Below are positions 10,931-64,000 of a stretch of DNA of 64,000 nt, one piece after another. Both the position numbers and the translations under genes were made by a program. The DNA comes from Tubulanus polymorphus (taxonomy: Eukaryota; Animalia; Nemertea). Position 1 is the stretch's first letter; each line of letters begins with the position of its first letter. The notes beneath the pieces were generated by a model. That model made no database searches and was not told the origin of the DNA. It saw nothing but the letters and a program-made list of their open reading frames with translations. The stretch is taken from the NCBI RefSeq assembly GCF_964204645.1, contig NC_134027.1, positions 19,740,560-19,804,559 on the forward strand, in the 5' to 3' direction.

Positions 10931-10943
10931 TTATTTTAGTTAA

Positions 10944-32565: not shown

Positions 32566-32566
32566 C

Positions 32567-34645: not shown

Positions 34646-35800
34646 ATGGCAACTAGAAGCGGGACAACATACGGGTCGGACGATGCGGGTGGCTTGCAGG
34701 GGCAAACCTCTACAGGAGGGAACCCACAGGGTCACCCCCCAATTAGCAATGACACGGTTTTAGAGGCCCTCTCGGGCTTACGCGAACAGGTGGACACGGC
34801 CACCGCGTTTATGAACTTCTCCATGCTCCCGAAATTTACAGGACGAGACAGTCAGTGCGTCTCTGATTGGTTCAGAGGGTTCAATCGTTTGGCCGATCTG
34901 AGAGGCTGGGACGAAAATGCCAAAAAGAAACAGTTGTATTGGTTTTTGGCTGGCCCAGCCCTAGTTCTATTCAATGACCTCCGCATTGATCAGGCGACCG
35001 ATTCGACAAAAATTACCACTCCCTGGGAGCATATTGTCCATGCATTTTGCACGCAATTTAGCCCTACCTCGTGGGCCTTGGTCAAGGAGTCGGCCTTGAC
35101 GACAATGCGACAGGGGGAAACGCAACCGGTCGATAGGTTTCCGGAGGAAATTGATCGGGTGGCCTCAAGTTTGAAGTTCTCGGACCACCAGAAAAAGATG
35201 TTATTGATCAATAACTCTCGGCCTGACATTTCAGTCTATCTGTTGTCGCAACGTCCAACAACTTTTAGGGATGCATGGGAGGCAGCCAGAATGGCTGAAC
35301 ATATCGAACAACGAAAGGCCCTGTCGTCTCCCAAGATATCGCAAATTGGGACCGAACCAAATAAGGCGATAGGGGATGTCATGACGGAGCTACGGGACAT
35401 GTTCCGCCAAATCATGGACACACAAAAGTCTACCCGAACTCAGCGGAATGATAGGGGTACTTATTATAGCGAGAACCGTCCATCACAACGGTCACAAGAT
35501 GGGCAGGTGGTGTGCTACCAATGTCACGCCCCCGGTCATTACGCCAGGAATTGTCCAACTTGGCGTTACGACCAACAAAGGTCGCGGGTCTCGCCAAACC
35601 GGGACGCATTTCAGCGTGATAATCGCCGTCCCCAAAACTTTGGTAGGGGCCAGTTTCGGTCACAGAATATTGGACGTGGTTCCCAAGGGGCTAATCGAAC
35701 ATTTAGTCAGGGAAACGACCGGGGACCTCATCTTATGGACCGACAAGGGTGGGGTCGCGCAATGAATGGTCAACAGAGCCCTCGCCCGATTCGGCGATAA
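34646..35800 (+). CDS. gag: Gag with CCHC zinc knuckle
   Basis: 'LPKFTG', 'W...F...A...GW', 'L.GPA..F', 'RQGETQPV' (MHR-like), CYQCHAPGHYARNC. Confidence 0.92.
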   Translation: MATRSGTTYGSDDAGGLQGQTSTGGNPQGHPPISNDTVLEALSGLREQVDTATAFMNFSMLPKFTGRDSQCVSDWFRGFNRLADLRGWDENAKKKQLYWFLAGPALVLFNDLRIDQATDSTKITTPWEHIVHAFCTQFSPTSWALVKESALTTMRQGETQPVDRFPEEIDRVASSLKFSDHQKKMLLINNSRPDISVYLLSQRPTTFRDAWEAARMAEHIEQRKALSSPKISQIGTEPNKAIGDVMTELRDMFRQIMDTQKSTRTQRNDRGTYYSENRPSQRSQDGQVVCYQCHAPGHYARNCPTWRYDQQRSRVSPNRDAFQRDNRRPQNFGRGQFRSQNIGRGSQGANRTFSQGNDRGPHLMDRQGWGRAMNGQQSPRPIRR

Positions 35801-37287: not shown

Positions 37288-37333
37288 GGTCATCATAGAC
37301 GGAAAGTACTCGATTGACGGGACACAAGCATCG

Positions 37334-37738
37334 GTGGCAGTCTTTGAGCCGGCAAATCAATTAAGGGCACATGATCTTATGAGTGCAAGGTCAGTTGTCG
37401 ACGTTACGCAATCAGGCATTCCGGTTCGGGTCATGAATCCCACATCACGACATGTCACCCTCTATGAGGATATGTGTCTTGGCCACTTATGGACAGATGG
37501 GTGGTCACTTGACCAATCCCTGAAGAATGAAGGGAATTCGGGACAGCTGACCCGACCTCCAGAGGTGTCTGTCACACATGTGGACTACCCTCAGACATCT
37601 GCTGACATTGGGATACCGGAAATAGATATGTCAGACTCGGACCTTTCTGTATCACAGAAAGCGAAACTTCTTGAACTAATACGATCGTATCGGGACATTT
37701 TGCACGAACACCGGACGAACTTGGTAAAACTGACTTAG
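37334..37738 (+). pseudogene. Protease-RT spacer of pol, cut off by frameshifts
   Basis: 'IPVRVMNPT...VTLY', 'SDLS..QK.KL.ELI..Y.D' typical of the pre-RT region. Confidence 0.75.
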
Positions 37739-37806
37739 TCAAACACGTCATTGACACAGGGGACGCGGCCCCAATTCGGAAAAGGCCTTATAGAGCCTCT
37801 CCGGCC

Positions 37807-40749: not shown

Positions 40750-40795
40750 TACGTGGTTTCGAGATTACTGATTCTTGCTATCCCTATTTTTCAGG

Positions 40796-43429: not shown

Positions 43430-44916
43430 GGGCAGTATTTGAAAGCTATTTAAGAATAGCTATTCTGAATAAGGGTGCTCGAATGCCCTCATTGGATTTG
43501 ACGTAAGTATAATTTAATCAGTAATAAGGTCAGGATGCATATGTCCTGCAAAATTGTCGGAAAGTTGTTATTATATGATGATGAAACACAAATATATTAG
43601 AAATAAGTACTATTAAGCCTTTAAGTTATGTGAGATAAAGACAACCATAGAATAAACATAGATTATAGGTTTAACTGTCGTGTTATTGGCCTATCGCCGT
43701 AATATCAATAATCTCCAGTGTTTATTATCCGTAGTCTGAGTAGAAGTTGTTAATTGTCAGTTAGAAAAGAAAGAGTTATGAAATTTTTATATAATCTCTG
43801 TGTTTTTATTTGATTGTAAGGTACCCTTATCGGATGTGTGAAGATGGGACCGTCGGGATATGACAGCACAACGATGGAAGAATGCCTTCTTCTGTCAACC
43901 GCGATAGATGTCGACGGGTACCCCCCTGATAGTGACCATATGGAGATGGGGACTTGTTGGGAGGTATCCTGAGACTCTATTCGACGCAACTGATAGTATG
44001 ATAAACCAACAACTGGTATGCTCTGGTCGAGATGAGTGATATTAATTTGCCGATTCGTCAAATAACGGAGAAACGGAGCGAATATACGACGTACAACAGC
44101 GAACTTTGGGCGTTGGTTTTAACGGGATGGAATCATGCTCGATGATTAGTCATGCGATTCTGGCCATTGTTAGTGGTGTTGTCACTCTCGAAGACCTGTT
44201 ATATACTCACGAACTTAAGTGATGAAGGGTGGACAAAGACACCTGGCCAATGCGATACGAAATATGAAGGAAAGTGATAATTTCCGTAGACATCTTAGCG
44301 GAGTAAAGCCGAGTGTGTAGATGGCTCCCGTGTAGTTACATTAACATTCGATGGAATGTTGTTCGCTCAAGCCGTAAGATGCGAATACATTACTGTTCCG
44401 TTTCTATAGTAACTGTGGAGAAAAGACTCCGATATAGTAACCGTAGTACTATAGCGTCTATGAATAGCGAGCAAGTATCAGCTGAACATGAATGCGTTTT
44501 GCCGTACTATCAACGTAGCAGTACGCGCTTCGAGGAACTGCGGTGGATGACGTCATTCGTTCGTCCATGACGTACCTTGTTGTGTCTGGTAGCTATTGCG
44601 TCACTTCGCGGTAAATTCTAAACTCGAACTGTGAACTGTTTTGTGCTTAGCTTTCGACTGTTTAGTGTGCGGGGACAGCGGTCTCGAATGAACTTTTTTT
44701 TCCGATTGGGTATCCAGAACTTTAAATGCGGTTTTATGATAAACTGTATCCTGAACTTTAACACGCGTTTGTTGTGTTGAACTTTTAAACAGTTACTCGT
44801 TGCATGAATTGTTTTTTTTTGCAATTGATGTTCTTTTTCAGGATCTGTCTAGGGAAGTTTCAGCGCGATTTTCATGAGTCAGTCTAAATTCAAAATTTCG
44901 GGACGAAATTTAAACT

Positions 44917-44926
44917 GGATAGGGAG
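44917..44926 (+). promoter_or_regulatory. Polypurine tract
   Basis: ggatagggag, 3 nt before the 3' LTR. Confidence 0.65.
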
Positions 44927-44929
44927 TGA

Positions 44930-46182
44930 TGATCCGCAGCAAGATTCCGTAGTAACTAAAAAATGTTTGTAATGATGGTTTTTGTTTACGTTGGTGGTTT
45001 CTTTATGGGTATCAGACAGCAAACGATGTGTGCAAGTTGTTGTTTGATGCTTTGATCTACCAGCGCTGACAATAAATCAGCCAGGGGTAAAAATAATTCT
45101 TCCTCGGTTCTTGTGCTGCGATATCTGGCAAACATTTAGAATTATTTTTAAAAAACTTAAGGATAGACGGAACTGTAATTGGTTGGGTCGGAACGATGAG
45201 GTGCTTTGATAGTGTGGTTTGTGCAGGGATCTCGCTGTTACTTCTTGATACTCCCGACTACTTTCTATAAAAGGATGAACCGGAAGTATAGGAAGACATT
45301 GTTGTTTTGCTTTATCCTGTATTAATAAATGAAAATTGGTATAATAAGTATAGAATGATTTTAGATTTGATAATTAATTACATTGTATTTCTGAATCAAA
45401 AGTTTACTATTGTTGATTGGAAAAAGAAACGATGAGTTTGTTCCATAATCTAGGTGAAAACTAAGTTTTGAAAATATATCTAAATTAAGTATCCTGGATG
45501 TTAATTAAGGACAAGACCTTTATAATCGCTTAAGTTTTATGGAAGTTTAATTGTGGCAAATATCAATACTAGCTCTCTAAGGTTTCTGTTGGTGTACATG
45601 TCTGTTGGTAACTCGTAGAGAATGGCTGCTCTCTCAACGATGATGGGTAGGGAGTGAGTAAATCAAAGCGTGTTATGACAGGAGGGTTGGAAAGAAAAGT
45701 TACTTTGGCAAATCAGTTTCTCAAATAATTTTAGATTAGCGAATCATTAAGGCTAATTCTACATGTCCAAAACCGTCATGACAGCTATGTTGCTGCTCCT
45801 TGCCAAAAGTCGAACGGGAGAGTCGGCATTCTAGGAATGCCGATCTTTTCCATAAAAGAGGCCCGCAGTCTTGAGAAAGCAGACTTACCCGGGGACGCTC
45901 GTTAAGATACTTGAGAGTTGGGTGGAAATACCAGAATTAAGACGGGTTACCAACAGTAGTGTACAATAGGAATTTAGAGTTAGGAATTGAACTGTGTGCT
46001 ATCTGGAGATATTACTATTATCAAGGTAAATAAAATCTATTTTATTATTATTATATTCAATCAGAATTTCGGCATTTTAGTTTAATTATTTGGGTTTGTG
46101 CACGGACACGTTCTCTCGCCAGGGACCGATCTTTACGTTTTTATATTCAACGATTAAGGAGAGGATTGTGACCGGTGTATCA
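44930..46182 (+). repeat. 3' LTR (1253 bp)
   Basis: Direct repeat of 31294-32565. Confidence 0.95.
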
Positions 46183-46202: not shown

Positions 46203-49200
46203 GTACATACCGATCATTGTCAAATGCACAAGGAATTTACTAAATACAAGTATATAACACAATCCTTTCCGTATGCTGGACTCACACTTGACATTCGGAG
46301 TAAGCATTCGCTGTGGGGGAAAGGGATCGTTCGCTGTGTCGCTTGTGTTATCGAGTTTGACGCGGCTTTAGGCCTACCGGTGCTGAGCTTAACTGTCTCA
46401 AACAAACACAGTATAATTGTTGCGTTTATTAACGGATTCATTGGATTGAACTTCAAACAAAATTTACGATATTTAGGTGGGTTGTTATTCAATAGGCCTA
46501 CGACCAATCTGTCCGGATGTTAGGCCTACGCATATACATAGGCCTAAATAGGCTAGTAGCGTTAAGCGTTCGCTGTGTCGCTTGAAGTGTTTATCGAGTT
46601 TTACGCGACCTTAAGGCTTAAGTATGGTGGCTGATAAGGGCCATGTGTAAAAAAACACGTATATGCAAATGAGGGCGACATTATGACAAAAGGACAAAAC
46701 TAAAATAACGCGACAAAACAATAATTTTGGTTTTGTCGCCCGCGACAATTCATTATTTTGGTTTTATCGCCCGCGACAATCATTATTTTGGTTTTATCGC
46801 CCGCGACAATTCATTAATTTGGTTTTGTCACCCGCGACAAATCAATATTTTGGTTTTGTCGCCCACGCAAATTCAATATTTTGGTTTTATCGCCCGCGAC
46901 AATTCATTATTTTGGTTTTATCGCCCGCGACAATTTTTTTTTGGTCGCAGTTTTATCGCCTGCGACACTTCAATATTTTGGTTTTATCGCCCGCGACAAT
47001 TCATTATTTTGGTTTTATCGCCCGTGAAAATTCATTATTTTGGTTTTATCGCCCGTGACAATTCAATAATTTGGTTTTGTCACCCGCGACAAATCAATAT
47101 TTTGGTTTTATCGCCCGCGAATTCATTATTTTGGTTTTATCGCCCGCGACAATTCATTATTTTGGTTTTATCGCCCGCGACAATTCATTATTTTGGTTTT
47201 ATCGCCAGCGACAATTCATTATTTTGCTTTTATCGCCCGCGACAATTCAATATTTTGGTTTTGTCGCCCTCGACAATTCAATATTTTGGTTTTGTCGCCT
47301 ACGACAATTCAATATTGTGGTTTTATCGCCCGCGACAATTCATTATTTTGGTTTTATCGCCCGCGACAATTCATTATTTTGGTTTTATCGCCAGCGACAA
47401 TTCATTATTTTGGTTTTATCGCCCGCGACAATTCATTATTTTGGTTTTATCGCCAGCGACAATTCATTAGTTTGGTTTTGTCGCCCTCGACAATTCAATA
47501 TTTTGGTATTGTCGCCCTCGACAATTCAATATTTTGGTTTTGTCGCCCACGACAATTCAATATTTTGGTTTTATCGCCCGCGACAATTCATTATTTTGGT
47601 TTTATCGCCCGCGACAATTTTTTTTTGTCGCGGTTTTATCACCTGCGACACTTCCATATTTTGGTTTGATCGCCTGATGCGACAATTCAATATTTTGGTT
47701 TTATCGCCAGCGACAATTCATTATTTTGGTTTTATCGCCCGCGGCAATTCAATATTTTGGTTTCATCGCCAGCGACAATTGATTATTTTGGTTTTATCGC
47801 CCGCGACAATTCATTTTTTTGGTTTTGTCGCCCACTCTATTAGCTTTTGAATAATTAGGCCAATTAATAACGTAATAAAGACTTATGCTTTCGCCTATTT
47901 TGAAGTCGATTAATCTGATTAATCTGACAACTCGAGGCCCTTTATCGCTTCCGTACAGTCGTCATATCACTGGCGTCCTCAACTTTCAGCAACGCAAGTC
48001 ACATGGAGTCGTACATGTTCTACTTTCTGCGACGTGACACGACTGTCACAACCAACTGACACAATCGTATTGCAACCGACATGCACCGAAACTTGCGATG
48101 CAACGCGAGGATCGCATCGTGTCACAAGACCTACCTACGTCCGGCTTTAAGTTACTGCGGAGCACCAGAAATATCTTTTTTTTTCGTTCAAAAGACCTTT
48201 CGCTTGAAAATTCTTTCGTCGGAACAAAATTTATTTCGTTCGAACCAATAATATTCTATACGATTGAACCAATTTGAAAAAATCGTTTGAACAAAGTTGA
48301 ACAAACTTTTTTTTGTCCAAACGAAAGGTTTTTCGTTCGAACAATCGTTCAATTGAACAGAATCGTTTTAATTTGAACAGAATTTTCTTGTCAGAACATT
48401 AAGTTTTTCGTTCGAACAAGTATATTGAAAAAAGTTTTTTCTCCGAACCGAAAGTATTAAGTATTTCGTTCAATCGAACAGAATTGTTTTCATTCAAACA
48501 TTGGTTCGAAAAAATTGTTTACGCTCAACCAAATTTTTTTGCCGGGACTAAAAATTTTTCATTTCAACAATAACATAGCTTTTTATTCGAACACATTTTT
48601 TGTCAGGATAAAGAAAAATTTTGGTTCAAGCAAAAAGCGTATTGTTCGATCAAACAGAATAATTTTCATTCGAACAAGATTTTCTTGTTGGAACATTAAG
48701 TTTTTAAGTTGAACAGCGTGTTAAGGTCGATTTGGAAATTTACTCGGTCTGGTATATGTTGGATTACTGTGTATGTCATTTGTCAGGACATTAAACAGAA
48801 GACAACTTAGGATACTACCTTGCGTGACTCCACTAGTTTGACCGACTTATTCCAAGATGAGGCGTTCCGTTGATTTCGGCTACAAGTTTTCGTTCAGAGA
48901 TAACTGCTGAGCCATTTGGGCGACCTATCATTGATACTGTTTCCTAATAGCCTGTTTAGTAATGGCTGAAGTTGCGCCTAATCAATTGCTTTGTCGAAAT
49001 CCACCGTTGAACAGGATTCTAAGACTGTGCAGAAAACCCGTTATCGCTGCTTTGCAGCTATATTTATTATTAGGGTTTTCTGTTATTTCACAGAAAACCC
49101 TATTGATATCCGCGTGGTTATTATTATTATTATTTTCTTCCACACTATTTTTACCAAAAGAACATAGGCTTTGTTACCTTTCCGCTGTTTCATATACAAT

Positions 49201-50361: not shown

Positions 50362-50560
50362 AGTAATAGGGGTTTAGTTGTTCTAGATCAAAGGTCGAAC
50401 GGTCGAGCTCGTAAAAAATGAAAAAATATGAAAATAACTATAATTTCTATTTGAATTACTCGCGAATTTCATAAAAAATGAGTAATTGGGAAAGTGGGGT
50501 TTCAGATCAGAGGTCGAAGGTCGAACACTCATCACCACAAGTAATTTTTTTTCCTAATAA

Positions 50561-50887
50561 ATGGGAGATAGAAAAGCATTCTTAGCAACAATAAATAACA
50601 GAATTAAACCAACAAAAAAACAATTTGAAATAAAAAAGTTAGTTGATGTTACAAAAGAAATTGAACATAAGATATTGAAATTAGAAAAGATAAAAACTAA
50701 ATATGGAGAGAAAGTATCAGCGAATTTAAGCTACTGTAATGTTAGTACATCGCGAGAATTTAAAGTGTTTTTACCTGATAAATGGGTTTCATTGAGTACA
50801 GAGGAATTAAAAGATTTAGAAGGATTTAAAATAATCTATCATGGGAAAAATGAAGACGGGCATCATGATTTAGAAATTGTTGATTAA
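50561..50887 (+). CDS. Polinton small hypothetical protein
   Basis: Intact 108-aa ORF with the element's T-tract/TAAATG start; 'TKYGEKV...FKVFLP'. Confidence 0.7.
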   Translation: MGDRKAFLATINNRIKPTKKQFEIKKLVDVTKEIEHKILKLEKIKTKYGEKVSANLSYCNVSTSREFKVFLPDKWVSLSTEELKDLEGFKIIYHGKNEDGHHDLEIVD

Positions 50888-52044
50888 ATAAGAAATAAAA
50901 ATAATGAATATCTAGAATCCAAAATTACCTTAGTCGTTTTATAAACAACTACAATCATACAATCAAACATCTGTTACATGTTATTATAAGAGAGTGCTTC
51001 ATTTGAATATTGATCAATCAAACAGGTGTTGCACAACGTTGTTGTTATATTGGATAGCTAGCAGTTATATAATAAGCACGCAGTACATACAACACACACA
51101 GGCCAGTTAGCCGGCATTGAACGCAGTACATACAACACACACAGGCCATTTAGCCGGCATTGAACTACCACGTTTTCATTGGTTGCTGAAAGCGAGGTTT
51201 ATTTAAATTAGCTCGGCCGTGACGACAGGAGGATAGTCATCATTCTCTCTCGTGATTAAAAGGAATATTTCAATGTTTTTACGGTAAGTTTTAGCAAAAC
51301 CACCCGACAGGGGATAAGCATCCCGTTATTGAGAGGCGCCACGAGATACCTATCCCCAAGCATTTCTACTTACACCCCTGTGACCCACACCTCGCCAATT
51401 CTCCTTCAATGGTTGACAGGAAACACATTATATTAAAGGCGCCTAATGCATTTCCTATCAACCCCTTACCCCCGAAAGGAGGATCGAAAGTCGAAACTGA
51501 AGGAGAACCACGGAGGGTGGACAAAGGTGCATTTTCGAAATGCCCCTGCAAGCCAAGCCCGGCGGCACTACAGTGGTCGAATGAATTGCCTTATATACTT
51601 AGCTAAAACACCTAAGTAAATGTTGCTGGTGCTAAAAAAAATATGTGAAATTTGAAATTATAAATTATTCCGAATGAAAAGAATATAAGAATGAAAACTG
51701 ATAAATGAATTATGGATTTTTAACTTAATTATAATATAATTTTTAATCAAATTAGTAATCAATTACTATGTTAATTGATAAACAAATTCAAATTCAAATA
51801 TTCATTTTAGCATACCCAGTGCTGTCATCTTTCAATTTAAGAAAAAACTAATAGTAAGAAACGACTGTAATACAATATTCAAGTAAAAACAAAATAAATT
51901 AATAAAAATAATGAATATCTAGAATCCGAAATGACTTATCTGGACAATTTAATTGCTCCGCATAGATAGACAAAAGTAGTGAGATATTCAATTAATATTC
52001 AATTAATTAAAAAAAATTATTTTTTTTGCTTTTTTTCTAAAATA

Positions 52045-52413
52045 TTAATCCATTTTCTTTATTATCAATTTTGGAATTTCAGAAGTATTTTCATTTTTGA
52101 TCGCAGTTGTTTCAGAATTATTAATATCATGAATTTTATTTGATTTCTTATACCAATTACACCCAATCAAAATGAATACAATTACAAATCCAACTGTAAA
52201 ATATAGACATTTATCAAATATTCTACTATCAGAAGGAGTAGAAAAAACAATATTTTCACCATTTTTATTAACATTTTTATTACTTATTTTTTCTTTTACA
52301 GCTTTTTTATATTCTTGTGATTTAATTCCTAATTGCCGAGACCATTCAATTTGTTTCTGAGTTCTCGGTTTTTTCTTCACAGTTAATTCCTTCACTTCTT
52401 TCACCTCGCTCAT
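52045..52413 (-). CDS. Small basic single-TM protein
   Basis: Homolog of 10571..10930. Confidence 0.75.
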   Translation of the reverse strand: MSEVKEVKELTVKKKPRTQKQIEWSRQLGIKSQEYKKAVKEKISNKNVNKNGENIVFSTPSDSRIFDKCLYFTVGFVIVFILIGCNWYKKSNKIHDINNSETTAIKNENTSEIPKLIIKKMD

Positions 52414-52951
52414 TTATTAAAGAAATATTTTTACTTTCAATATTTGAAAATGTTATAACCCCAGTTGATAATAATGTCATAAATCCACCTAATTGAAACG
52501 ATAAATATCCAATCCATTTATTTAATTCAGTCATAACTAAATAATCATTTTTTAAATCGGAATATAATCTATTTTCATCTTCAATTGGTAGTATATAATT
52601 ACATAATTTACTATAACCTTTTACTACATTTTCTGATATCGCGTCATTAATTCTAGCTGTTCTCGCGGCTTCATAAATCTTAAATAATCTAATAATTTCA
52701 ACTGATTTCATTGTATCTAATTCATTATAAGTTAAATTTTTATCGACAAAATTTTTACATTTTCCAGATGCTATTAATATTTCTAATTGATGTTTGCAAT
52801 AAAGATAATATTCATAATTATTATTTGTTGTAACATTATTTAAAGCACCATCATCTGGAATTAATTTGTTTTCTGTTATTCCTAAATCATCTAAAGTTTT
52901 TTCAATTGGAACATCACCATTTTTAGATTTTATTTTATTTTCACCTACCAT
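52346..52951 (-). CDS. Conserved Polinton hypothetical protein
   Basis: Homolog of 10944-11514. Confidence 0.8.
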   Translation of the reverse strand: MVGENKIKSKNGDVPIEKTLDDLGITENKLIPDDGALNNVTTNNNYEYYLYCKHQLEILIASGKCKNFVDKNLTYNELDTMKSVEIIRLFKIYEAARTARINDAISENVVKGYSKLCNYILPIEDENRLYSDLKNDYLVMTELNKWIGYLSFQLGGFMTLLSTGVITFSNIESKNISLINERGERSEGINCEEKTENSETN

Positions 52952-53117
52952 TTATATAACAAAAAAAATTAGTTGTGATGTTGCAACTAGAATTTAACTA
53001 GAATGTAACTAGAATTCAACTAGATTAACAAGCTAGTTAAAATATTGTCAAATCTAGTTGATTTTTGTTCCAACTACCAATAACTAGAATTCAACTAGAT
53101 TAACAAACTAATTGAAT

Positions 53118-53726
53118 TTAAATAAATTCATATTTAAATGGGTGTTGTAATCTAAATAATAATTTTGATCTTTTAATATTTTTCAACTTATCCATATATT
53201 CATTATGTAAATCATGTGGAATAATATCATTTTCCTCAAGTGCATTTTTCATCGATTTTCTATCTTTACTGTAGAATAAAACAGGAAATCTAATGTTTTC
53301 TCTAAAGTCTTTAACAATTGAATTATATTTTTGATTTAAAACCCATGTTGTTATCCCAAAATGTCTCCCAGAGAAAGCTAGATAACATAACTCACTTTCT
53401 CTAACTTTTGAATCATGTAAATTTGCGCAATCATCTATGATGAATAATGTATTTGATCCTTTATAAATATCAATTGCTATTTTAACACAATTATTTAAAT
53501 TTTCTTTTACTGTTTTAGGATCTAATATAATAAATTTATTATTTTTAGTAATATTTCTATCATAAGTTTGATCAAATTCATACGTTGGGCAAAATAATAC
53601 TATATTATCAAAATAGTTTTCATAAAGAGTTTCTAATAAATTTAATATAAAATAAGTTTTTCCACAATTTGTTACGCCAGATATTAACATATTATGAGGC
53701 TCAAATATAAATAATTCTTTATTCAT
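53118..53726 (-). CDS. Genome-packaging ATPase (A32/FtsK-HerA type)
   Basis: Walker A GVTNCGKT, Walker B LFIIDD, 'GRHFGI...LNQKY..I....REN'. Confidence 0.92.
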   Translation of the reverse strand: MNKELFIFEPHNMLISGVTNCGKTYFILNLLETLYENYFDNIVLFCPTYEFDQTYDRNITKNNKFIILDPKTVKENLNNCVKIAIDIYKGSNTLFIIDDCANLHDSKVRESELCYLAFSGRHFGITTWVLNQKYNSIVKDFRENIRFPVLFYSKDRKSMKNALEENDIIPHDLHNEYMDKLKNIKRSKLLFRLQHPFKYEFI

Positions 53727-54855
53727 TTATATATTTTTAATTTTACTTGATAATATCCATTCGTTGAATTTATCTGGCCATCCAACCCATTTTACTAAAG
53801 AATATTTTTTTCTTTTAATAGTTTTTGTTTTTAATACTTTTTCAATTTTATATTCTTGTTCTAGATTTTCAGTAGTTAAACTCAATTCTTCTTCATAAAA
53901 ATACCCATCAACTTCTTCACCATCTAAATCTTCTAATTTATAGACATATGGTTTTGTTGTTATTACCTTTTTTATTTTATATATTTCCCTAGTAAAATTT
54001 CGATCGTATCCTTTGTCAAATATCTTTTTTATACTTAGAAATTCTAACATTTTGACCAACTTTAAATTTAGGTTCACCAAAATCATCTACAAGAAATGCT
54101 CCATATAAATTATTCCAAACAATTTCAGCATTTTCAGGTTTTCTAGCATCAATAGGTTTCATTCCAATAGAAGAATGATAAGAATTATTATATCCTTCTA
54201 TCAATTTTGGTAAAACATCAATCCATTTAAAAGTATTATTTGCTGTAAAATATTTCCACATTCTTGTTCTTAATGTTCTATTAAATCGTTCAACAACTGC
54301 TGCTATTTTATCCGATTTTGTTGAAAAATATTTAATATTATGATTATCTAAGAGTTCATGAACAAGTGAATTATCAAATTCTTTTCCATCATCAAATTGT
54401 ATTTTTTCTGGTTTTATTTTATCATCCGAAAGAAATTTTCTTAAAACATTTGATGTTTGTACAGCATCTTTTCTATAAAGTGGGAAGCTCCATACATAAC
54501 GACTAAAAATATCAATTATATTCAATAACCACCAATAATCATCATTATCTTTCTTAACATTTTTCATATCAATTAAATCTCCTTGCCACTGTTGATCTAC
54601 ATAACTTACCATAGTTTTACGAGTTTTATATTTTCTAACAATTTTTTTATGTGTTGTATATGTTGGTTGTTCTAACATAAATTCATTTATATCTTTATAT
54701 TTAACTAAATTTTGTGGGATTATCTTATCTAATTTATCTTGTTTTACTTTACGCCATATATTTTTGGTAGAAGAATAAGCAACCGAACTCTCAGGGTTGT
54801 AATATAAATTTCTTAAATATTGTTCTTTAGTATTAGGAGTTTTTTTACCTCCCAT
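53727..54855 (-). pseudogene. rve integrase with chromodomain (one frameshift near 54020)
   Basis: QWQGDLIDM, IDIFSRY, QFDDGKEF, VERFNRTLR; tail YKIEKVLK...SLVKWVGWPDKFNEWI. Confidence 0.93.
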
Positions 54856-54885
54856 TTATATATCGTTAATTTTAACTTTATATTT

Positions 54886-56133
54886 CTAATATTGAATACT
54901 ATCTAACTGTGAATTTACAATATTTAATTGTGCGTCAGATATAATATAAATGTGCATTTTGAAATTTTTGTCTCCTTTTTTTTTCATAAATAATTGTATT
55001 CCATCTTTAGTGTTCTGTAATTTCTTCCCTGAACCATGTAATGAATTATCCCCTGTTGTTCTAAAATCTAACCATAATGCATATTTATTGCCGGTATAAT
55101 AATCAATTTGATTAATATTACAATTTCCAAATGATTTTACTTTTTCATTCATAAAATGTTTTCTAATTTCTGGCCACTGATCTATCATTCTCATTCCTTG
55201 ACAAAATATTTTATTTGCTATTCCTTCGATAGTTATTTCTACTTTTGTTATTTCAGGATTATAATAATTATCAACATTTATTGCGCCATTAGTATATGTT
55301 GCAATGGTAAAAAATATTAATATGCCTTTAATAGATCTTCTTGGGAAGTTAATATTCTCATTAATTATTTCATCATTTGCATTAATAGTTACGGTTTTAA
55401 ATTTATCAATATAATCATATAATAATGAAAATCCTTGATTGTATTGAGTTTGAATTATACTTGAAATATTTTCATTAGTTACTGTATCATATTCTAAACA
55501 TATATTCGATAATTTATAACTCATATCTTTAACAACGCTAGATAATACAATTTCATTTACAGGAGCAAATGTTATCTCAAATATAATATCTTCTTGAATT
55601 GCGTATTTATATAAAGGTGCATTATTATTTATCAATTCAAAGTCTAATGGAATTTTATATTTGTTCCACATATATATTTTTTTAATCAATTTATCTACAG
55701 CATTAGTTAATATTGCGCTATTAGCTTCTGATCTTAATTTATTTTGGTTTTCTGATTGGATGCCTTGAAATATCATATTATTTCTATTTTCTTTAGTTAA
55801 CCATAAATCTTTATAATGCATAAATAAATTATAATCATCTAATGAGAAAACTGTTTCTGGACCAATCTTTATTGTTAACTTTTTAATCAAATATCTTCCA
55901 ACATTATCAACAACATAATTATTATTATTACCGATTACTTTTATATCGGCCGATAAATAAATACTATTTGGAACATAAAAAGTATTTTGTGTTAATCGAG
56001 GGATTCTAACGTATAAAGTTTCATCGGGATTAATATTTGAAGGGTTATGAGTAATTATATGCTGTGATCTTTCTGCTTTAATAGCATTAGATATTCTAGA
56101 AATCTTAGAAGGATTGATATAACTCCCACTCAT
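54886..56133 (-). CDS. Major capsid protein (double jelly-roll, hexon-like)
   Basis: 415 aa, beta-rich; 'NPSNINPDETLYVRIPRL', 'Y.LSNI.LEYD', 'YNP.ITKV.ITIEG', 'K.ALWLD.R...D..LHGSG'; size and position fit. Confidence 0.8.
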   Translation of the reverse strand: MSGSYINPSKISRISNAIKAERSQHIITHNPSNINPDETLYVRIPRLTQNTFYVPNSIYLSADIKVIGNNNNYVVDNVGRYLIKKLTIKIGPETVFSLDDYNLFMHYKDLWLTKENRNNMIFQGIQSENQNKLRSEANSAILTNAVDKLIKKIYMWNKYKIPLDFELINNNAPLYKYAIQEDIIFEITFAPVNEIVLSSVVKDMSYKLSNICLEYDTVTNENISSIIQTQYNQGFSLLYDYIDKFKTVTINANDEIINENINFPRRSIKGILIFFTIATYTNGAINVDNYYNPEITKVEITIEGIANKIFCQGMRMIDQWPEIRKHFMNEKVKSFGNCNINQIDYYTGNKYALWLDFRTTGDNSLHGSGKKLQNTKDGIQLFMKKKGDKNFKMHIYIISDAQLNIVNSQLDSIQY

Positions 56134-56153
56134 TTATTTAATAAAAAAATTTA

Positions 56154-57590
56154 TTATTTATTTTTTGATATCATATTTACTAACCCAAAAATAATAGCAC
56201 TTACAACTGTAATTAAAAATAAAATAATATGTTCAGCAGCAAAGTTAAGAATATTACCTGCAGATTTCAATATAAAACCAACAAATGATGCAATAATTCC
56301 TGGTAAAGCTGCAGCAGATTTTTTATATAGTCGCCATAAATATTTTGCTAATTTTTTTAAACCATCCTTAACTTTATCTTGTATAGAATTGTTATCATTC
56401 TGGGGTTTATCCGGTTTATTGGTAGTAGGAGTAGATTTCAAAGCATTTGATATTGCTAAACCAATTGTTGTAAATAACATAGTTACAGCTGTTAGAATTG
56501 AAAGAATTGTTATTCCTTCTAATTTAAATAATAACTTTATTCTATCTTTCAGTGATATTTCAGAATTTGGTTTAATCAACAAATCTTTAAAAATAACTTT
56601 TAATCTATTTATATTATAATCATATGATTTTAATAATAATTTAATTTCTTCTTTTTGTACTTCTAAATTATCTTTTAAATTATTAATTTCTTTTTCTAAA
56701 CGTAATTCTTTTTGTCTATATTCTATTTCATCAATTACTTGATGATCTAAATCAGACTTTAATTGTTCTATTTCTTTATTTTTATCAGTTAATTCTTTTT
56801 CCGAATACATAATTTTTTGATCTCTTATACTTTTATTATGTGCAATTTTATCAGATGCAAGTCTTATACTAATAATTTCTCCAATTGCTTTATCAGAAAA
56901 TATATCTAAATCTTCTAATTCTTGATCTGTTGCATCAAGTAATCCATTCGGTAAAAGTTTTTCAATTGGAACTTTATTTGATTTAAGTTTACTATTTTTG
57001 AAAGTTATATTCTGTTCAGAAGTTGTTTCTGTTTCTGATTTCTTTTTGATTATTTCAAATAATTCATTAATTCTTTGTTTAAATACGTCTATATTATCAT
57101 CTATTTCTTTTTGTGTAACATCAGTTATTTCATTACTATTACTTATTATTTTAATTCTCTCTGGTTTTAATTTTTCTAAAGTTGATTCTGATAATATTTC
57201 ATTTTTATTATTTTTATAAGTGATATCAATATAATAATCACCTTTCAAACGATAATAACATTTACCATTATCTAAAAATTTTAATTGATCTGCTAAAAGT
57301 CCAACGTCTTCATCATTTATGTTAAGTTAAGATTTTTCAATTAAATCTTCTAATTTAGGTATTTTGTTTAAATTATCTAAATCTTGTTTTACTAAATCTG
57401 GGTCTAAATTTTCAGGATTTAATTGTGATTCTGCATTTTTAATATAATCAGGCATATTTAAATTATTATTATATTCTGGTTCATTACCATCATTAAAACT
57501 TGTTTCATCAAAATCAGGTGGTTGTTCATCAGTTATACCAGGTTCATCAAAATTATCCATTCCAATATCTTCTCCACCTTCTACATCCAT
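56154..57590 (-). pseudogene. Coiled-coil protein with acidic N-terminus and C-terminal hydrophobic helices (split into 57327..57590 and 56154..57248)
   Basis: Single gene-start motif at 57590; 'EGITI.SILTA..M...TI', 'AAALPGIIAS.V.FIL'. Confidence 0.65.
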
Positions 57591-57606
57591 TTATATAATA
57601 AAAAAA

Positions 57607-58978
57607 TTAAAATTTAAAATATAATATTCCTCCGATTACAATTCCTATACAAGTTATAGCTAATTTAGTATTTTCATGGGATTTATTATCATCATTTAGT
57701 TTAATTATATCATGTTGAATATTATCAGTTTTAATATTTTCTGTAGTATCTTTTATTTTGGAATCATTATCCAATTTAATATTCTTAGTTTTAGTTTCTG
57801 TTGATTGAATGTGTTTTTTATTTTTGGAGCAGTAATAATCTTTTTATTTATATCATTTAACCCAAATGAATTATTTATTGTTGCAGTTTTAATTAGATTA
57901 TTATAACCAATTATATTTCCCATCTTTCATACTAAATCATTAGAAATAATTAATAGATTAGGGCCTATACAATAATTAAGCCTTACATGAGATTTATCTA
58001 AATAATTTTGATATCTTATAATGTTTTCTGGAATCGAACTATTTTTATCCTTATGAATTGAATCTTCAAATAAAACTTTAAATTGTTTCTGTGTATCGAA
58101 TGATGTATTTAAATTTCCAATTATTGGGGATCTTGTTTCAACTTGCGCACCTAAAATACATATCAAATAAGTTCTAATAGATTGATTTATTCTTTGTATA
58201 CCTGATTTTGTAAAACCTTCACTATTTTCTAAAATAAAATAAACCCAACCATTATTGTTTTCTTGTTCTAAATTATCATAAAATTTCGGTAATTTATTGA
58301 AATTAAATGTTTCTAAATCCTTTGTTTCTATTTTACCATAACCTAATTTATTAATTTATTATTATAGATATTATAAAAACTATTAGATGGTATGGGAAGT
58401 GCGCAATATTCTGCAATCTTTTTAGGGCAAGGAAATGATCTTATTGTTCCAATTTTTTTTCTAAAATGAGAATTATTTATATCTATATTAAATTCATTGC
58501 AAATTTTATAAAACTTTGATAAATTGATATTATTATCTAATTCTTTAAAATACCTAGATCCTGGTAAAGCGCACTCTAATTCATTTAATATTATTCTTAT
58601 TTTAAAGTATGTATGAAATCTAAATAAACTTTGAATTAATTTATATTTAGAATTATTCAAATGATCATTCCAACTAATTCCACATCCTGTTGTTGCACAA
58701 TAAACAGCAAAATTTAATTGGTTCTGCCAATACTTCATATTAGATTTTAATAACCATTGTTTTTCATCTTTCAATTTTTTAAAATTAATTAAATATACAT
58801 GAAATATATTTTCCATCTTTGCATTAAAATTATTAGTTTCAGTAACATAAATTTCTAATTTAGTTAATGAATCTAAAACTTGATTTCTATATGTTATATC
58901 TTTATTAAAATCTATTGCTGGAATATTATATTTAATTGATTTATTATATTGGAAAGCTTTTGGAAAACTATCTACCAT
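57607..58978 (-). pseudogene. Conserved Polinton hypothetical protein, multiply frameshifted
   Basis: ORF pieces 58343..58978 (WQNQLNFAVYCATTGCGIS) and 57927..58166 (ILGAQV.TRS.I.G) with a hydrophobic C-terminus. Confidence 0.6.
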
Positions 58979-58994
58979 TTATTTAATTAAAAAA

Positions 58995-59430
58995 TTAATA
59001 ATTTATTAATTCTTTTAATAATTTATCTTGTTCTTCAACTGTTATATGACCATTTAAACTTATTATATAATCTAGTGTATTCTTTAATTTATCAATTTCT
59101 TTTATATTAGTTTTAATTTTTTCTTTATTACTTTTTATATTTAATTTTGAACTTATACCAGTTAAAACACTTGAACTTAATCCTAACACACCAATTGATA
59201 TAGCTAAAGGTGTTAATGGACTGAATATTGCTAAAAATGTTATTACAGAACTAATTGTAACCGAACCACTTATAATCAAATAATATATAATTTTACTTTT
59301 TAGATATTTTTTTCTTTTTAACTTTTAAGTCACTTTCAAATTCTAATATTTGTTTTTCTAAATATATTTTTAATTTAGTTTTATTTATATCATGAGGAAT
59401 AATATCAATGCTATCAACTTTATCTTCCAT
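58995..59430 (-). pseudogene. Small two-TM protein (frameshifted)
   Basis: Start motif at ~59430; hydrophobic ORF 58995..59279. Confidence 0.55.
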
Positions 59431-59450
59431 TTATTTAGCAAAAAAAATTA

Positions 59451-59873
59451 CTAATTAGTAAATTTATATGCTACAAATATAACAATAACAGTTCCACCTA
59501 AAATCCATATTATTTCATATTTCTGTTGTTCTTTACTTGGGGTATAATAATCTGATAATTTAGGTTTGTATAGATGTAATTTTTCTTTATTGGTTACCGC
59601 GTTATATAAACTCATTGCATCATCAACTGATTGAAAATCTCTATGTGAAATCTTCTGATCATATAATTCTTTATTGATGTAATCCATATAGTTTTGTCTC
59701 TTTTCTCTATATTCTTCTGCAGCTTTATTGTATTTCTCTAACGCTAAGTTATGTCTTCTTTGTTCTCCTAATGAACTATTTTTATCAATATGTTTAAATA
59801 AATAACCACCACCAGTAAATGCTAAAGCGTTAACAATTGCCGATCCTATAATAGTTATAATTGCAGAAGCCAT
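59451..59873 (-). CDS. Small membrane protein
   Basis: 'GSAIVNALAFTGG.YLF', 'E..RHNLA.E', 'P.LSDYY.PS.EQ..YE'. Confidence 0.75.
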   Translation of the reverse strand: MASAIITIIGSAIVNALAFTGGGYLFKHIDKNSSLGEQRRHNLALEKYNKAAEEYREKRQNYMDYINKELYDQKISHRDFQSVDDAMSLYNAVTNKEKLHLYKPKLSDYYTPSKEQQKYEIIWILGGTVIVIFVAYKFTN

Positions 59874-59898
59874 TTATTTAGCAAAAAAAATTATGCAT

Positions 59899-60120
59899 TT
59901 ATATGGGAGGAATATATTTTTGTTTTTCCAAATAATCAATAGTTAAATTAGATAAAGTAATTGCTAATGTTAACTTTAAAATATCATTTATATCAAATCT
60001 ATCAACATTAACACTTCCCATTTTGAATACTTTTTTTAATACCATTGAATAACCAACAGTTCCATCTGATAGTAATGCTCCATTATATAATCCAGTTATT
60101 ATCCACTTATTATCACTCAT
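59899..60120 (-). CDS. Small hydrophobic protein
   Basis: 73-aa ORF with start motif; ends DYLEKQKYIP. Confidence 0.7.
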   Translation of the reverse strand: MSDNKWIITGLYNGALLSDGTVGYSMVLKKVFKMGSVNVDRFDINDILKLTLAITLSNLTIDYLEKQKYIPPI

Positions 60121-60137
60121 TTATTTATCAAAAAAAT

Positions 60138-60477
60138 TACTATCTTCAAAATATTTAGTTATCTTAGTGATGATTAATTCAACATTTATTTTATTACTAG
60201 TTTCATTTGTATATATTTCAATTATTATTTTTCTAATATCATCAATGATAAAATCTTCATCTAATTCATAAAATCTTAAAGATTCTCTAATTTAATTAGT
60301 AATCTTTTCTACATTTAAAGTTTCTTTATCTATTGTTGTTTTATACTCAAATGTTGTTTCATTAGAAAATACAATATTTTTGATTTGTGTAATTACATCA
60401 TTAATGTTAAATTTCATTTCTTTCTCACGTTTAAAATCGAACCCAAAACATATACTCGGTCCAACAGTTATATTCAT
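60138..60477 (-). pseudogene. Small hypothetical protein (interrupted)
   Basis: Start motif at 60477; ORF 60292..60477, with coding-like sequence continuing to ~60138. Confidence 0.45.
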
Positions 60478-60493
60478 TTATATAGTGAAAAAA

Positions 60494-61216
60494 TTACTCT
60501 TTACATCTTATAACTAATTCATAAATTACAGGAAAGTTATTCAAATCAATTAAATAACCATTATGATGTCTTATTTCTAATTTAAAATTATTGAAATGTG
60601 GAATACAAGGTTTGAAATCACATTCAGCTAAATTATAATTTATTTGAGTTCCAAATTGTTTGACATTTTTTAATGGTAAAATATTTAATAAACTAGAATT
60701 AAAAATTGTATCTTTAGTTGCTTCAAATGTTTTTGTTGGGTCAATTAGATTACAATAAATATAGAAATGTGTGTAAGGTATTATATTTGAGCTACCTTCT
60801 ACGTTTCCAGTAACAATACGCGGTTTAATTCCTAACATTTTAGCTATTGGTTTGTTTACCATAAATTTATTTTGTTCATTGGCTAACTTTATTTTAATTT
60901 TATCAGAACTATCACTTTTTATAAATCTAATTGAAAATTTATCTTCACTTTCAAGTTTTAATCGTGCTTTCCGATTAATTTCTTGGGCTAATGTTTCTAA
61001 ATTATATAATCCTAGTTTTAAAAATAGATGAAACCATTTATTTTTATTTCCAATATGAATTAAAAAGTCTCTATGTTCAAAAGTTTTAGCCGTTATATTA
61101 TAAAATGAGTTACATAAACATAATTTTCCATCTAATTGAACTAGTAAATTATGTGATTTATAATTTGTAAGTTTTCTAGAATCAACAAATATTCTGTATT
61201 CTTTTAATTCTACCAT
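60494..61216 (-). CDS. Minor capsid protein (penton-like)
   Basis: 'GLYN...L', 'YIYCNLID', 'SSLLNILP', 'I....G..IDLNNFPVIYELVIR' pattern; 240 aa. Confidence 0.7.
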   Translation of the reverse strand: MVELKEYRIFVDSRKLTNYKSHNLLVQLDGKLCLCNSFYNITAKTFEHRDFLIHIGNKNKWFHLFLKLGLYNLETLAQEINRKARLKLESEDKFSIRFIKSDSSDKIKIKLANEQNKFMVNKPIAKMLGIKPRIVTGNVEGSSNIIPYTHFYIYCNLIDPTKTFEATKDTIFNSSLLNILPLKNVKQFGTQINYNLAECDFKPCIPHFNNFKLEIRHHNGYLIDLNNFPVIYELVIRCKE

Positions 61217-61284
61217 TATTTATAACATAAAAAAATCACCGCTCATCACTAAAAATTAATTTTAATAAAATTTTTCCTAAATAA

Positions 61285-62598
61285 ATGGATGAGAAGATAG
61301 CATGCGAAATTTGTGGTGAACTTCTAAGAAAAAGTAATATGGCTCGACATATGAAAAAACATGATGAAAATTATAAACCCCCTAAAATAAACTGCCCAAA
61401 ATGTAATAAATTATTCTCAAGAAATTATGTTAAAAAACATTCAGAGAAGTGTAGAATTAATGGCGCAACGGCTAATGTTGATAGTAATGAAAGTAATAGT
61501 AATTCTGCTGAAGTTGAACCTGAAGTTATTTGGAAAAGACCCTTCTTATTCTATGATAAGGATAATATAAAAGATCATTTCTGCGAGCCTTGTCGAATAA
61601 AATATGGCCCTGAAAATATAGAAGATTGGGAGAATCATCAATTTCGTAAAGTACATATAGATAAAATTTCTAATAAATTTGAAACTGAATTTAATGAAAG
61701 AAAAAATAATTTATTAGAAAAAATAAAATATGAGAAAACGTTACCAGATAATAAAGAAACAGTTGAAAAGTTAGAAAAACAATATAATGAATTAACAAGA
61801 AAAACATATTATTGTAAATATTGTAAATTGATTATTACAACAAGTAATTCAAATCTACATAATAGAACAATAAAACATAAAGAAAACGTAAGAAAATACC
61901 AAGAGTTTAATGAAGATCTATTACCAATAAATTATGAACAAAAATGCCCACAATATATTTATGCGACCTTAAGGCAAGAAGGTACTGTGTTATTTTGTGT
62001 TGATTGTGGATGGCAAAAGAATTTATGGGGTGAAGAAAAAACTAGAAATTTTCTAATAGATCCAAAATTAAATTATCTAGATGAAATTTTTAAAATATTT
62101 TCTATGGAAGATCATACAGCAGAATATATGCAATGGCTTGAAAAAATGAAAATAATAGAAAATAAAAATGGTGAAATAACTAAAAAAGATATTATAAATA
62201 CAATTATTCCGTCAACATTTAACACAAAACAAAAGAAAATGTATTTATATTTATTATTTAACGATTATTATGAAAAACCTAAATTAACAGAAGAAGATAC
62301 GGAAAATATAAAAAAAAAATTCAAACAAATATTAATGTATCATTTGGAAAATAGAATAACAGATTCAATAAATTATGAATTCTTTTTAAATAAGATTGTA
62401 AATTATTTAAACCTAGATATTATAATTCCATTTGACGAATTAACAAACAAAAAGAAACAAAGAGAGCGAGATGAAATGTGGAACAAGATAGAACTTTATT
62501 TAAATGAAAAAAATGGAATGGAAGAAGAACCTAAACAATTAAATGAAAATGAAGAAACCAATAGTGATTTCGAGTTTGATGATATAGATCCATTTTAA
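61285..62598 (+). CDS. Multi-zinc-finger protein with a C-terminal VLTF3-like domain
   Basis: C2H2-type fingers (CEIC..H..H; CPKC; CEPC..H..H; CKYC..H..H; CVDC) and C-terminal 'PKLT.E....I...F.....SINYEFFLNKI...L......K.K...RDEMWNKI...L'. Confidence 0.7.
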   Translation: MDEKIACEICGELLRKSNMARHMKKHDENYKPPKINCPKCNKLFSRNYVKKHSEKCRINGATANVDSNESNSNSAEVEPEVIWKRPFLFYDKDNIKDHFCEPCRIKYGPENIEDWENHQFRKVHIDKISNKFETEFNERKNNLLEKIKYEKTLPDNKETVEKLEKQYNELTRKTYYCKYCKLIITTSNSNLHNRTIKHKENVRKYQEFNEDLLPINYEQKCPQYIYATLRQEGTVLFCVDCGWQKNLWGEEKTRNFLIDPKLNYLDEIFKIFSMEDHTAEYMQWLEKMKIIENKNGEITKKDIINTIIPSTFNTKQKKMYLYLLFNDYYEKPKLTEEDTENIKKKFKQILMYHLENRITDSINYEFFLNKIVNYLNLDIIIPFDELTNKKKQRERDEMWNKIELYLNEKNGMEEEPKQLNENEETNSDFEFDDIDPF

Positions 62599-64000
62599 TA
62601 ACCATAAGGTAATGTTTTTATACCATCATCTAAAATATGCCTTTTATCATCAAATGGATTTAAACTAGTTTTTTCAACTTCATTAATGTACATCTCATGA
62701 TCTTCTGATCTTAAACAATTCATTTTGTGTTTCATTACAATTGATTTATATAAACACATTATATAATCTTGAAATTCTATATGTTTATCAACCACATGTT
62801 TTGTTATTCCTTTTAACTTTTTAGCTTTATGATCTTTTGTTCTGTAACTATACATTTTACTTCTTATCTTAACAAATTCAATCATTTCATCACCCCCTAA
62901 TTCATCTTTAAACTTACCAGGAATCTTTTTATTATCATTGCTAAATAGTTCATGATCTTTGGGATAATTGCTAAAATCAAAATGATGTTTTAATGTTTTT
63001 AAGTCTTTTGTTATGTCATTTGTCTTGATTTTTAGTATGTAACTGTCGGTATTTTTTTGTATTAATGGGAACCCAGAATTGAATGTTCCATCATCTGTTG
63101 ATAAATAATAAACATAGTCAGTTGGGTTATATATTTCAAATAAATCTTTAACTTCTTCTGTTAATTCTTTTTCTACATGCTTTAAATTAAAACAATTTGG
63201 TTTAGATTTAATTAATTCTATATTCATATTAAATCCTAATGAACTGCATAATATATTCAATCCTGATATAGCAACTTTTCCTTTTTGAGCAAAGGATATT
63301 GTTTTGCGGTTTTGGAAACTTTTTGAACCATCTGCGGCATAGAATCCAATGAAGAACCACTTTCTTAAATTATTTTTTGCATTCAATACATAATCTGGAA
63401 CTATCTTTTCTTTTGTTGAAGTATTACTTTTCACTATTGCATGAATATAGAATTCATCATTATATTTTGCAGCAGAATCTTTAGGATTATTTACAAATAT
63501 TCTATAAACCGCGGATGATTTCATATGATCCATGATTCTAAATGTTTTATATGAATAAACTTCTTCGCAGAATTTCTTTATTCTTTCTAATAATTTCAAA
63601 TCTTCATTGCATAAATACCAACGATATTGAGTGCGATTAACATAATTATACACACCTGCTGAACCATCTCCCATGAAAAATCCTTTGATAAAATATTCTT
63701 TTTCTTCTAATGTTTCAGGTTCTATATTATAAATATTATCAATAATTTCATCAAATGACATATGATTCATTCTTTGGAAAAATCTTTTATGTAATAATTC
63801 ATCTCCAATTTTTATATCAGTTGGTTTTATTTCATCACCATTTCGTTTAATTAAACTATGATCTTCTGTAACATCTACAAATCCTAATTTAGTTCTAACT
63901 CTATAGATTTTCTTATTTGTTTTATGCCTAATAATATTCTTTAATTTTTTCCATCCATTTCTTGTCCAAACATCTATTAAACCATTTATTTGTATTAATT
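62595..64000 (-). CDS. Protein-primed DNA polymerase B, C-terminal part, containing an intein (frame open to the window edge)
   Basis: C-extein TDSY...FDFSNYP..NKK.PGKFKDE..IRSKMYSY..KLKGI..LNPFDDKR..TLPYG. Confidence 0.93.
   Translation of the reverse strand, partial: LIQINGLIDVWTRNGWKKLKNIIRHKTNKKIYRVRTKLGFVDVTEDHSLIKRNGDEIKPTDIKIGDELLHKRFFQRMNHMSFDEIIDNIYNIEPETLEEKEYFIKGFFMGDGSAGVYNYVNRTQYRWYLCNEDLKLLERIKKFCEEVYSYKTFRIMDHMKSSAVYRIFVNNPKDSAAKYNDEFYIHAIVKSNTSTKEKIVPDYVLNAKNNLRKWFFIGFYAADGSKSFQNRKTISFAQKGKVAISGLNILCSSLGFNMNIELIKSKPNCFNLKHVEKELTEEVKDLFEIYNPTDYVYYLSTDDGTFNSGFPLIQKNTDSYILKIKTNDITKDLKTLKHHFDFSNYPKDHELFSNDNKKIPGKFKDELGGDEMIEFVKIRSKMYSYRTKDHKAKKLKGITKHVVDKHIEFQDYIMCLYKSIVMKHKMNCLRSEDHEMYINEVEKTSLNPFDDKRHILDDGIKTLPYGY
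63051..64000 (-). mobile_element. Intein with LAGLIDADG homing endonuclease (N-terminus outside the window)
   Basis: VWTRNGWKKLKNIIRHKTNKKIYRVRTKLGFVDVTEDHSL (block B TxxH), FIKGFFMGDGS and FFIGFYAADGS (LAGLIDADG pair), VYYLSTDDGTFNSG..IQKN|TDS. Confidence 0.9.

Follow-up and report, generated by a model that had tools for sequence, protein, structure and literature searches.

A Predicted Intein in the Polymerase Gene of a Polinton-Type Element

The stretch of DNA under study, which has a length of 64,000 nucleotides and is called the window in the following, contains the left part of a Polinton-type element (50,362..64,000), and the gene for its protein-primed DNA polymerase (pPolB) is interrupted by a predicted intein with a two-motif LAGLIDADG homing-endonuclease domain. 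A single frame on the minus strand runs from 63,998, where it is open at the window edge, to a stop codon at 62,595 and encodes 467 amino acids. Its first 316 residues (63,051..63,998) are the C-terminal 316 of about 355 residues of the intein, which runs off the window and has the Hint blocks B, F, and G arranged around the endonuclease. The remaining 151 residues start at TDS and form the C-extein of the pPolB (62,595..63,050). Block B contains an intact TEDH (63,858..63,869), with the Thr at 63,867-69 and the His at 63,858-60. Also intact are the acidic residue of LAGLIDADG motif 1 (Asp, 63,666..63,668), the Lys of endonuclease block D (63,405..63,407), and the acidic residue of LAGLIDADG motif 2 (Asp, 63,330..63,332). 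The C-terminal splice junction (63,048..63,056) reads Lys-Asn/Thr(+1), with the Lys at 63,054-56 and the Asn at 63,051-53; all these features are on the minus strand. The C-terminal Asn, the Thr(+1), and the Thr and His of block B are the residues of class 1 inteins. An earlier annotation from the letters alone (the sequence-only reading) had described one open frame with block B, two LAGLIDADG helices, and a block F/G ending in Asn, followed by the Thr of TDS at +1 and a Maverick-type pPolB C-terminus, and the coordinates of the frame and its motifs bear out this description.

Domain profiles, which that reading had suggested as a check, gave a divided answer. Pfam LAGLIDADG_3 matched the frame above its cut-off (E 3.6e-7), whereas Pfam Intein_splicing stayed below the cut-off with the incomplete window copy (E 1.1e-3); with the relative P0004 it was above. 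NCBIfam intein_Nterm was below the cut-off with the window frame. The AlphaFold model of the window intein, built from an alignment of 81 rows, has a pLDDT score of 92.5, and the top nine matches of a Foldseek search of the PDB are whole intein homing endonucleases. Among solved structures, the model is closest to the inteins TliVMA, PI-PkoII, PI-SceI, and PI-PfuI (E 3e-14 to 9e-11), and I-DmoI comes next. With this modelled fold, we regard the identification of the frame as an intein as secure.

Insertion Site and Distribution of the Inteins

A search with the C-extein retrieved 48 proteins, all of which (48/48) are continuous at xxD/TD and none of which contains an intein; this is not a frequency of empty sites, because the search missed known intein-bearing pPolBs. 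The four nearest intein-free pPolBs are 74-83% identical to the C-extein of the window and read YFD/TDS. The C-extein is 59% identical to that of P0003, a protein that matches PF03175 at 5e-17. With the intein as the query, 202 longer proteins were obtained; the listing comprised 120 of them, which were inspected, and nine of these 120 are pPolBs that carry this intein at D/Ser. The assignment as pPolB is based on Pfam for two of them (P0003 and P0005), on likeness of the C-extein for three, and on inspection for four truncated proteins, including P0043. A further search at shorter lengths gave 22 matches, 20 of which are fragments nearest to these pPolB inteins, and a search of representatives contributed one more intein-bearing pPolB. 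The total is about 30 clusters of intein-bearing pPolBs (proteins or fragments), but about 20 of them belong to one family, so that they represent about six lineages. The nearest fragments are P0171 (69% identity, YQD/SVT) and P0173 (73% identity).

A D/Ser N-junction together with an Asn/Thr C-junction is present in the full-length pPolBs P0003, P0005, P0007, and P0008, and also in P0004, and the N-junction reads D/SVT in P0003 and P0171. The relatives with empty sites and the D/Ser junctions of the kin thus bear out the claim of the sequence-only reading that the predicted intein is inserted between the Asp and the Thr of the catalytic YxD/TDS motif of a Polinton pPolB.

One family of intein-bearing pPolBs is represented by a large set of proteins, P0004, P0018, P0062, P0067, P0172, P0174-P0177, P0179-P0189, and P0191, which are mostly truncated copies. 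They are encoded on long ENA contigs of up to 620 kb, and one cluster has 55 members, as expected for a decaying endogenous family in another eukaryote.

In IMG/VR, searches with the window protein, the junction pattern, P0003, and P0005 retrieved no pPolB inteins. The block B pattern retrieved six loci from this database, all of them giant-virus-type PolB and two of them from giant-virus bins, and a search with P0123 found three pPolB loci with empty sites. The search of prokaryote genomes gave no matches, and the phage collection gave two matches only, with 27% identity. A pattern search of metagenomes returned three loci, of which two are chance matches in an unrelated gene and one (L002) is a true copy with a broken frame.

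Origin and Spread of the Inteins

The pPolB inteins were recovered as a single clade in each of three trees, i.e., a quick tree with 89 rows (support 100), a tree with 50 rows after the removal of 39 long, gappy, or redundant rows (99), and a careful tree with 32 rows (100/100). The other rows of these trees are inteins of delta-like PolBs and of topoisomerases. A set of 140 new representatives contained 122 delta-like PolBs with inteins, one pPolB and one topoisomerase with inteins, six unclassified intein-bearing proteins, and ten intein-free pPolBs. The nearest metagenomic inteins of delta-like PolBs are 37-43% identical to the window intein, and the best named viral matches of the fold are polymerases of a phycodnavirus, Pandoravirus, Marseillevirus, and Megavirus. 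Homologs, fold matches, and the loci in IMG/VR therefore uphold the likeness to giant-virus-type PolB inteins that the sequence-only reading had noticed, and the phylogeny that it had called for places the pPolB inteins as one clade among giant-virus-type PolB inteins, in trees that are unrooted. The economical reading is that a giant-virus-type PolB was the likely donor and that the intein was acquired once. The shared motif FNxGFPL points to P0009, P0012, P0014, P0016, P0019, and P0022 as the sister group (support 88; the constrained tree is better by 13.7 log units, with p 0.78 in the approximately unbiased (AU) test), whereas other tree runs place the clade near P0072, P0084, and P0098.

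The same intein family is also present in type II topoisomerases, mostly at the D/TDG sites of the acidic motif, and these inteins form one clade (P0006, P0046, P0085, P0102-P0106, P0111, P0113, and P0118); P0006 apparently contains three inteins. Another intein clade is located roughly 66 residues into short PolB proteins of about 560-960 amino acids (P0017, P0026-P0036, and their kin), a placement which suggests that the respective polymerase genes might be split.

In the tree of the C-exteins the intein state needs five changes among 54 rows. A clade of the intein-bearing C-exteins was rejected by the AU test (p 3.4e-34), and so was a clade of the window and P0003 alone (p 3e-7); the test set consisted of 29 rows, retaining 24 of the 48 empty-site matches and leaving out P0005. 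The host polymerases are not a clade, a pattern that points to either sideways spread or repeated loss of the intein. One form of the latter would be that the intein entered a single ancestral pPolB long ago and has since been inherited vertically, with repeated precise loss and no recent homing. The single intein clade is on a long stem, as would be anticipated in this case, and the identities of inteins and exteins are similar in several pairs, i.e., 63/60% for window/P0003, 48/49% for window/P0004, and 77/85% for P0007/P0008. In particular, the near-equal values for the window and P0003 fit co-divergence with loss and thus speak against sideways transfer, and the patchy distribution would also fit ancient presence followed by repeated loss. 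However, the polymerase of P0005 is distant: the window and P0005 are 47% identical in the intein and only 31% in the C-extein, and in the comparison of the intein-bearing pPolBs the P0005 extein has identities of only 20-31%, yet its intein has 42-49% and is nested in the clade. In addition, the extein tree requires a minimum of four changes, and none of the six other pPolB inteins that could be aligned over the whole nuclease has lost the catalytic nuclease residues. Purely vertical inheritance is thus improbable in our view. Sideways transfer is favored because the polymerase of P0005 is so distant in spite of the similarity of the inteins, and it is likely that the intein has spread sideways among Polinton polymerases.

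Splice-Site Residues and the State of the Window Copy

Two residues of the window copy had been regarded as non-canonical in the sequence-only reading, the penultimate Lys and the sequence VYYL in block F. Residues were counted in 84 pattern-bounded inteins from the 120 listed relatives and in 133 further relatives from the second set of representatives. The penultimate Lys was read correctly, but it is not an oddity: it is the commonest residue among the 84 inteins (Lys 32, His 25) and is also frequent among the 133 (His 85, Lys 40), and the closest relative P0173 likewise ends with Lys-Asn/Thr. As Lys is ordinary in related inteins and present in P0173, the view of this residue as a defect was rejected. 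In contrast, the anomaly of block F was confirmed. Position 4 is Tyr in the window copy (63,105..63,107, minus strand), unlike in every pattern-bounded relative; Asp is present in 84/84 and 133/133 of them as well as in P0173. This position, usually Asp, has been described to assist several splicing steps, in an assisting and not a defining role (PMC4031507). Because of this assisting role the window copy may splice poorly, and the Tyr is likely to impair its splicing.

Two other genes of the element are damaged. The frame of the integrase is broken near 54,025, where the window sequence is contradicted by 207 of 271 reads, and an open reading frame (ORF) on the minus strand (57,590-56,154) contains an in-frame stop codon at 57,327. 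Together with the Tyr in block F, this indicates that the window copy is likely decaying, with the nuclease residues still intact. The C-terminal part of the latter ORF encodes hydrophobic segments.

The Element, its Copies, and its Gene Starts

Polinton termini begin with AG. The left end of the element is AGTAAT and is located in a host repeat, and the right part lies outside of the window. The start at 50,362 interrupts a repeat whose other copies continue differently, many reads leave the window sequence at 50,361, and the GC content changes from about 39% in the flank to 22-25% in the element. On the minus strand, the element encodes a retrovirus-like integrase (rve, 54,016..54,855, E 5.5e-11), the tail of which is found in 53,727-54,086 owing to the frame break mentioned above, an A32-type packaging ATPase (53,118..53,726, E 1e-12), and a candidate double jelly-roll major capsid protein (54,886..56,133). 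The latter has an Atlas score of 0.98 to viral clusters, some of them with capsid Pfams, a recognition that is below the reliable level. A zinc-finger ORF on the plus strand (61,285-62,598, 437 amino acids, zf-U1 E 1e-6) converges on the pPolB gene, and the two stop codons overlap. A second, decayed Polinton relic is found at about 8,700-13,060 on the minus strand; it comprises an ATPase, an integrase, and a pPolB C-terminus and has a DNA identity of 71-79% to the first element.

In raw reads of a second study (1,934 million letters) the depth was 130-220 over the intein, about 300 over the C-extein, and about 230-245 over the neighboring ORF. Of the 60,457 reads over 14 kb, 3,807 had an identity of at least 99%, 25,901 of 95-99%, and 25,273 of 90-95%, so that most reads are at 90-99%, as for a diverged family. 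Because of the read depth the element is probably multi-copy, with at least several copies for any genome larger than 100 Mb. The sequence-only reading had assumed integrated Polinton copies; the integration into a host repeat is observed, and the presence of several copies is probable.

The gene starts of the element are unusual. Eleven of its 15 ORFs of at least 70 amino acids start at TAAATG, compared with 8.3% of all ATGs (p about 1e-9), and three of the four remaining ORFs have internal or broken starts. The respective ATGs are at 50,561 (plus strand), at 52,413, 52,951, 53,726, 54,855, 56,133, 57,590, 58,978, 59,873, and 60,120 (minus strand), and at 61,285 (plus strand), and most of these starts, which are all within 50,540..61,290, have a T-run upstream. 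The 13.6-kb element contains 11 instances of TAAATG preceded by a T-run at a distance of 3-8 bases, whereas 37 kb of flank contain none and 200 shuffles gave a mean of 0.77 and a maximum of three. The combination of T-run and TAAATG matches the description of the vaccinia late promoter (PMC5294985). Such starts make it likely that the genes are transcribed by a large DNA virus in co-infected cells, and they suggest that the element replicates beside such a virus, which would be a likely route for the transfer of the intein. A scarcity of TTTTTNT on the coding strands was also considered and was dropped as evidence, because the A-richness of the coding strands explains it and a control is lacking.

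In intact members of the family, Ser1 would form an ester, the Thr(+1) would take over the N-extein, and the Asn would cyclise. Because splicing would rebuild the DTD sequence, the polymerase would work only after splicing. The endonuclease would cut empty alleles, and repair would copy the intein into them. As the genes of the element start at promoters of the poxvirus late type, we favor a helper-virus setting: contact with the intein as well as homing would take place mainly during replication of the element in cells that a large DNA virus has infected. In such a co-infection the polymerase gene of the parasite would meet the intein of a viral PolB, and many copies could undergo homing. The sequence-only reading had proposed that the intein could home among Polinton copies in an animal germ line, and this might take place among integrated copies in the nucleus without any helper virus. 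The read identities show that many diverged copies exist, the nuclease residues are intact, and the higher depth over the C-extein than over the intein would fit empty copies in the same genome. However, the resemblance of the gene starts to poxvirus late promoters implies cytoplasmic viral transcription, and none of the listed runs that contain the window sequence is recorded as RNA. We therefore consider homing confined to the germ line unlikely, and favor homing while the element replicates alongside a helper virus.

The Host Genome

Five kb away from the Polinton, the window contains a near-intact Ty3/gypsy element (31,289-45,624) with direct repeats that are 99-100% identical and about 13.6 kb apart. 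Its Pol carries a chromodomain, and an ORF of 885 codons (40,772-43,429) resembles F-type envelopes. The same pairing is known from a clade with elements of Cnidaria, Mollusca, and Annelida, described in a survey that covered invertebrate genomes only (PMC13524379). The neighboring retrotransposon makes an animal host probable, and the repeat-rich host genome is likely that of a marine invertebrate. A marine metagenome run with a share of 0.08 is too weak an indication of the habitat. A 31-bp tandem repeat in long arrays and other host repeats are present at 23,993-29,400 and 46,700-48,000.

A non-animal host or an assembly chimera, involving a protist, a symbiont, or a free virus in the sample, would be compatible with several observations, as no host gene was found in the window, the relatives of the intein stem from environmental assemblies, and the retrotransposon survey was restricted to invertebrates. 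On the other hand, the left end of the Polinton interrupts a host repeat whose other copies run past that point, and two studies that share one species label both have runs containing the window sequence, with 42-52% of the sampled words contained in four runs of one study. The chromodomain and the F-type envelope-like ORF of the adjacent Ty3/gypsy element also point to an animal. Such an origin of the sequence thus appears to have a low probability.

Weighing the Evidence

Taken together, we assign a probability of about 0.7 to the reading that a pol-c-type intein is inserted at YxD/TDS of the pPolB of an integrated Polinton, that it likely goes back to a single acquisition from a giant-virus-type PolB, with a likely sideways spread thereafter, and that the genome is likely that of a marine invertebrate. 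Several points weigh against it, in addition to the co-divergence discussed above. Concerning the intein itself, block A and the N-junction of the window copy lie beyond 64,000, about 40 codons past the edge according to the alignment with P0003, neither a read crossing from intein to extein nor an empty allele of the source species was seen, and the second relic is uninformative because its polymerase homology ends about eight codons before the junction. Concerning its history, the intein trees are unrooted with a sister group that changes between runs, so that donor and direction are inferred. The TAAATG starts could be read by factors of the host or of the element itself instead of a helper virus; no helper was found, and poxviruses are absent from the named intein relatives in this analysis. 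Concerning the host, no gene in the window ties the element to an animal, and the match to F-type envelopes is weak by the Atlas's own measure.

Comparison with Known Systems

The closest known system is the pol-c intein in the PolBs of Mimivirus, other Nucleocytoviricota, and archaea, which shares the YGD/TDS site, the length of about 350 residues, the ends Ser...Asn/Thr, and the LAGLIDADG endonuclease (Ogata et al., 2005, PMC549080). The host protein here is the protein-primed polymerase of an integrating Polinton instead of an RNA-primed delta-like PolB. Furthermore, the residues before the Asp vary in the pPolB family (YGD, YQD, YMD, YLD, ASD, SSD), and its inteins form a clade of their own. 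Virus-carried polymerase inteins have been found in eukaryotic nuclear genomes, in viral-like DNA polymerases encoded on nuclear scaffolds from Klebsormidium, Tetrabaena, and Hondaea (Gallot-Lavallee et al., 2023, PMC10710043). In contrast to the inferred animal here, these organisms are algae and a protist; the main text of that paper does not mention Maverick, metazoa, or animal, and two of its supplement files do not mention Polinton, Maverick, protein-primed, or metazoa.

Nuclease domains inside Polinton pPolBs have been described in the form of HNH/VSR insertions (Jeong et al., 2023, PMC10748475; Krupovic et al., 2024, PMC11071308), and it has been proposed that such insertions stem from intein invasions (Krupovic et al., 2024, PMC11071308). 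Unlike these, the insert described here comprises a complete Hint splicing domain and interrupts the catalytic motif, and in the text of the nematode Polinton paper (PMC10748475) the words intein, Hint, and LAGLIDADG do not occur. A precedent for splicing in animal cells is the intein of an animal DNA virus, the Chilo iridescent virus (as cited in PMC549080), but this is a free virus with an intein ending in Gln, whereas the element here is integrated into host chromosomes. In the literature searched, which did not extend to subscription journals, Repbase Reports, and preprint supplements, no report of an intein with a splicing domain in a pPolB or in an animal genome was found. The window contains a real intein of the known pol-c allele in a new class of host, probably in an animal genome; the copy is probably impaired, and the family shows signs of mobility.

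According to review texts, metazoan genomes are devoid of inteins (PMC5784728; PMC8529194), and ideas for intein-inhibiting drugs rest partly on this view. An intein carried by a Polinton would break this rule and reveal one route of entry. With it, the pol-c allele, so far described in archaea and giant viruses, extends across a deep divide to protein-primed polymerases. It would also serve as a marker that the Polintons of animals share the cells in which they replicate with large DNA viruses, which is an open question of their life cycle, and the presence of intein-bearing and empty alleles in one multi-copy family would allow homing to be tested with genome data alone. We put forward as a tentative and somewhat doubtful proposition that animal germ lines carry Polintons that need protein splicing for their polymerase, that these are parasites of a so far unseen, poxvirus-like large DNA virus, and that their intein came from the polymerase of a giant virus and is still traded among widely differing pPolB lineages. 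If this were true, animal chromosomes would contain a working intein and with it traces of the genes exchanged between helper and parasite.

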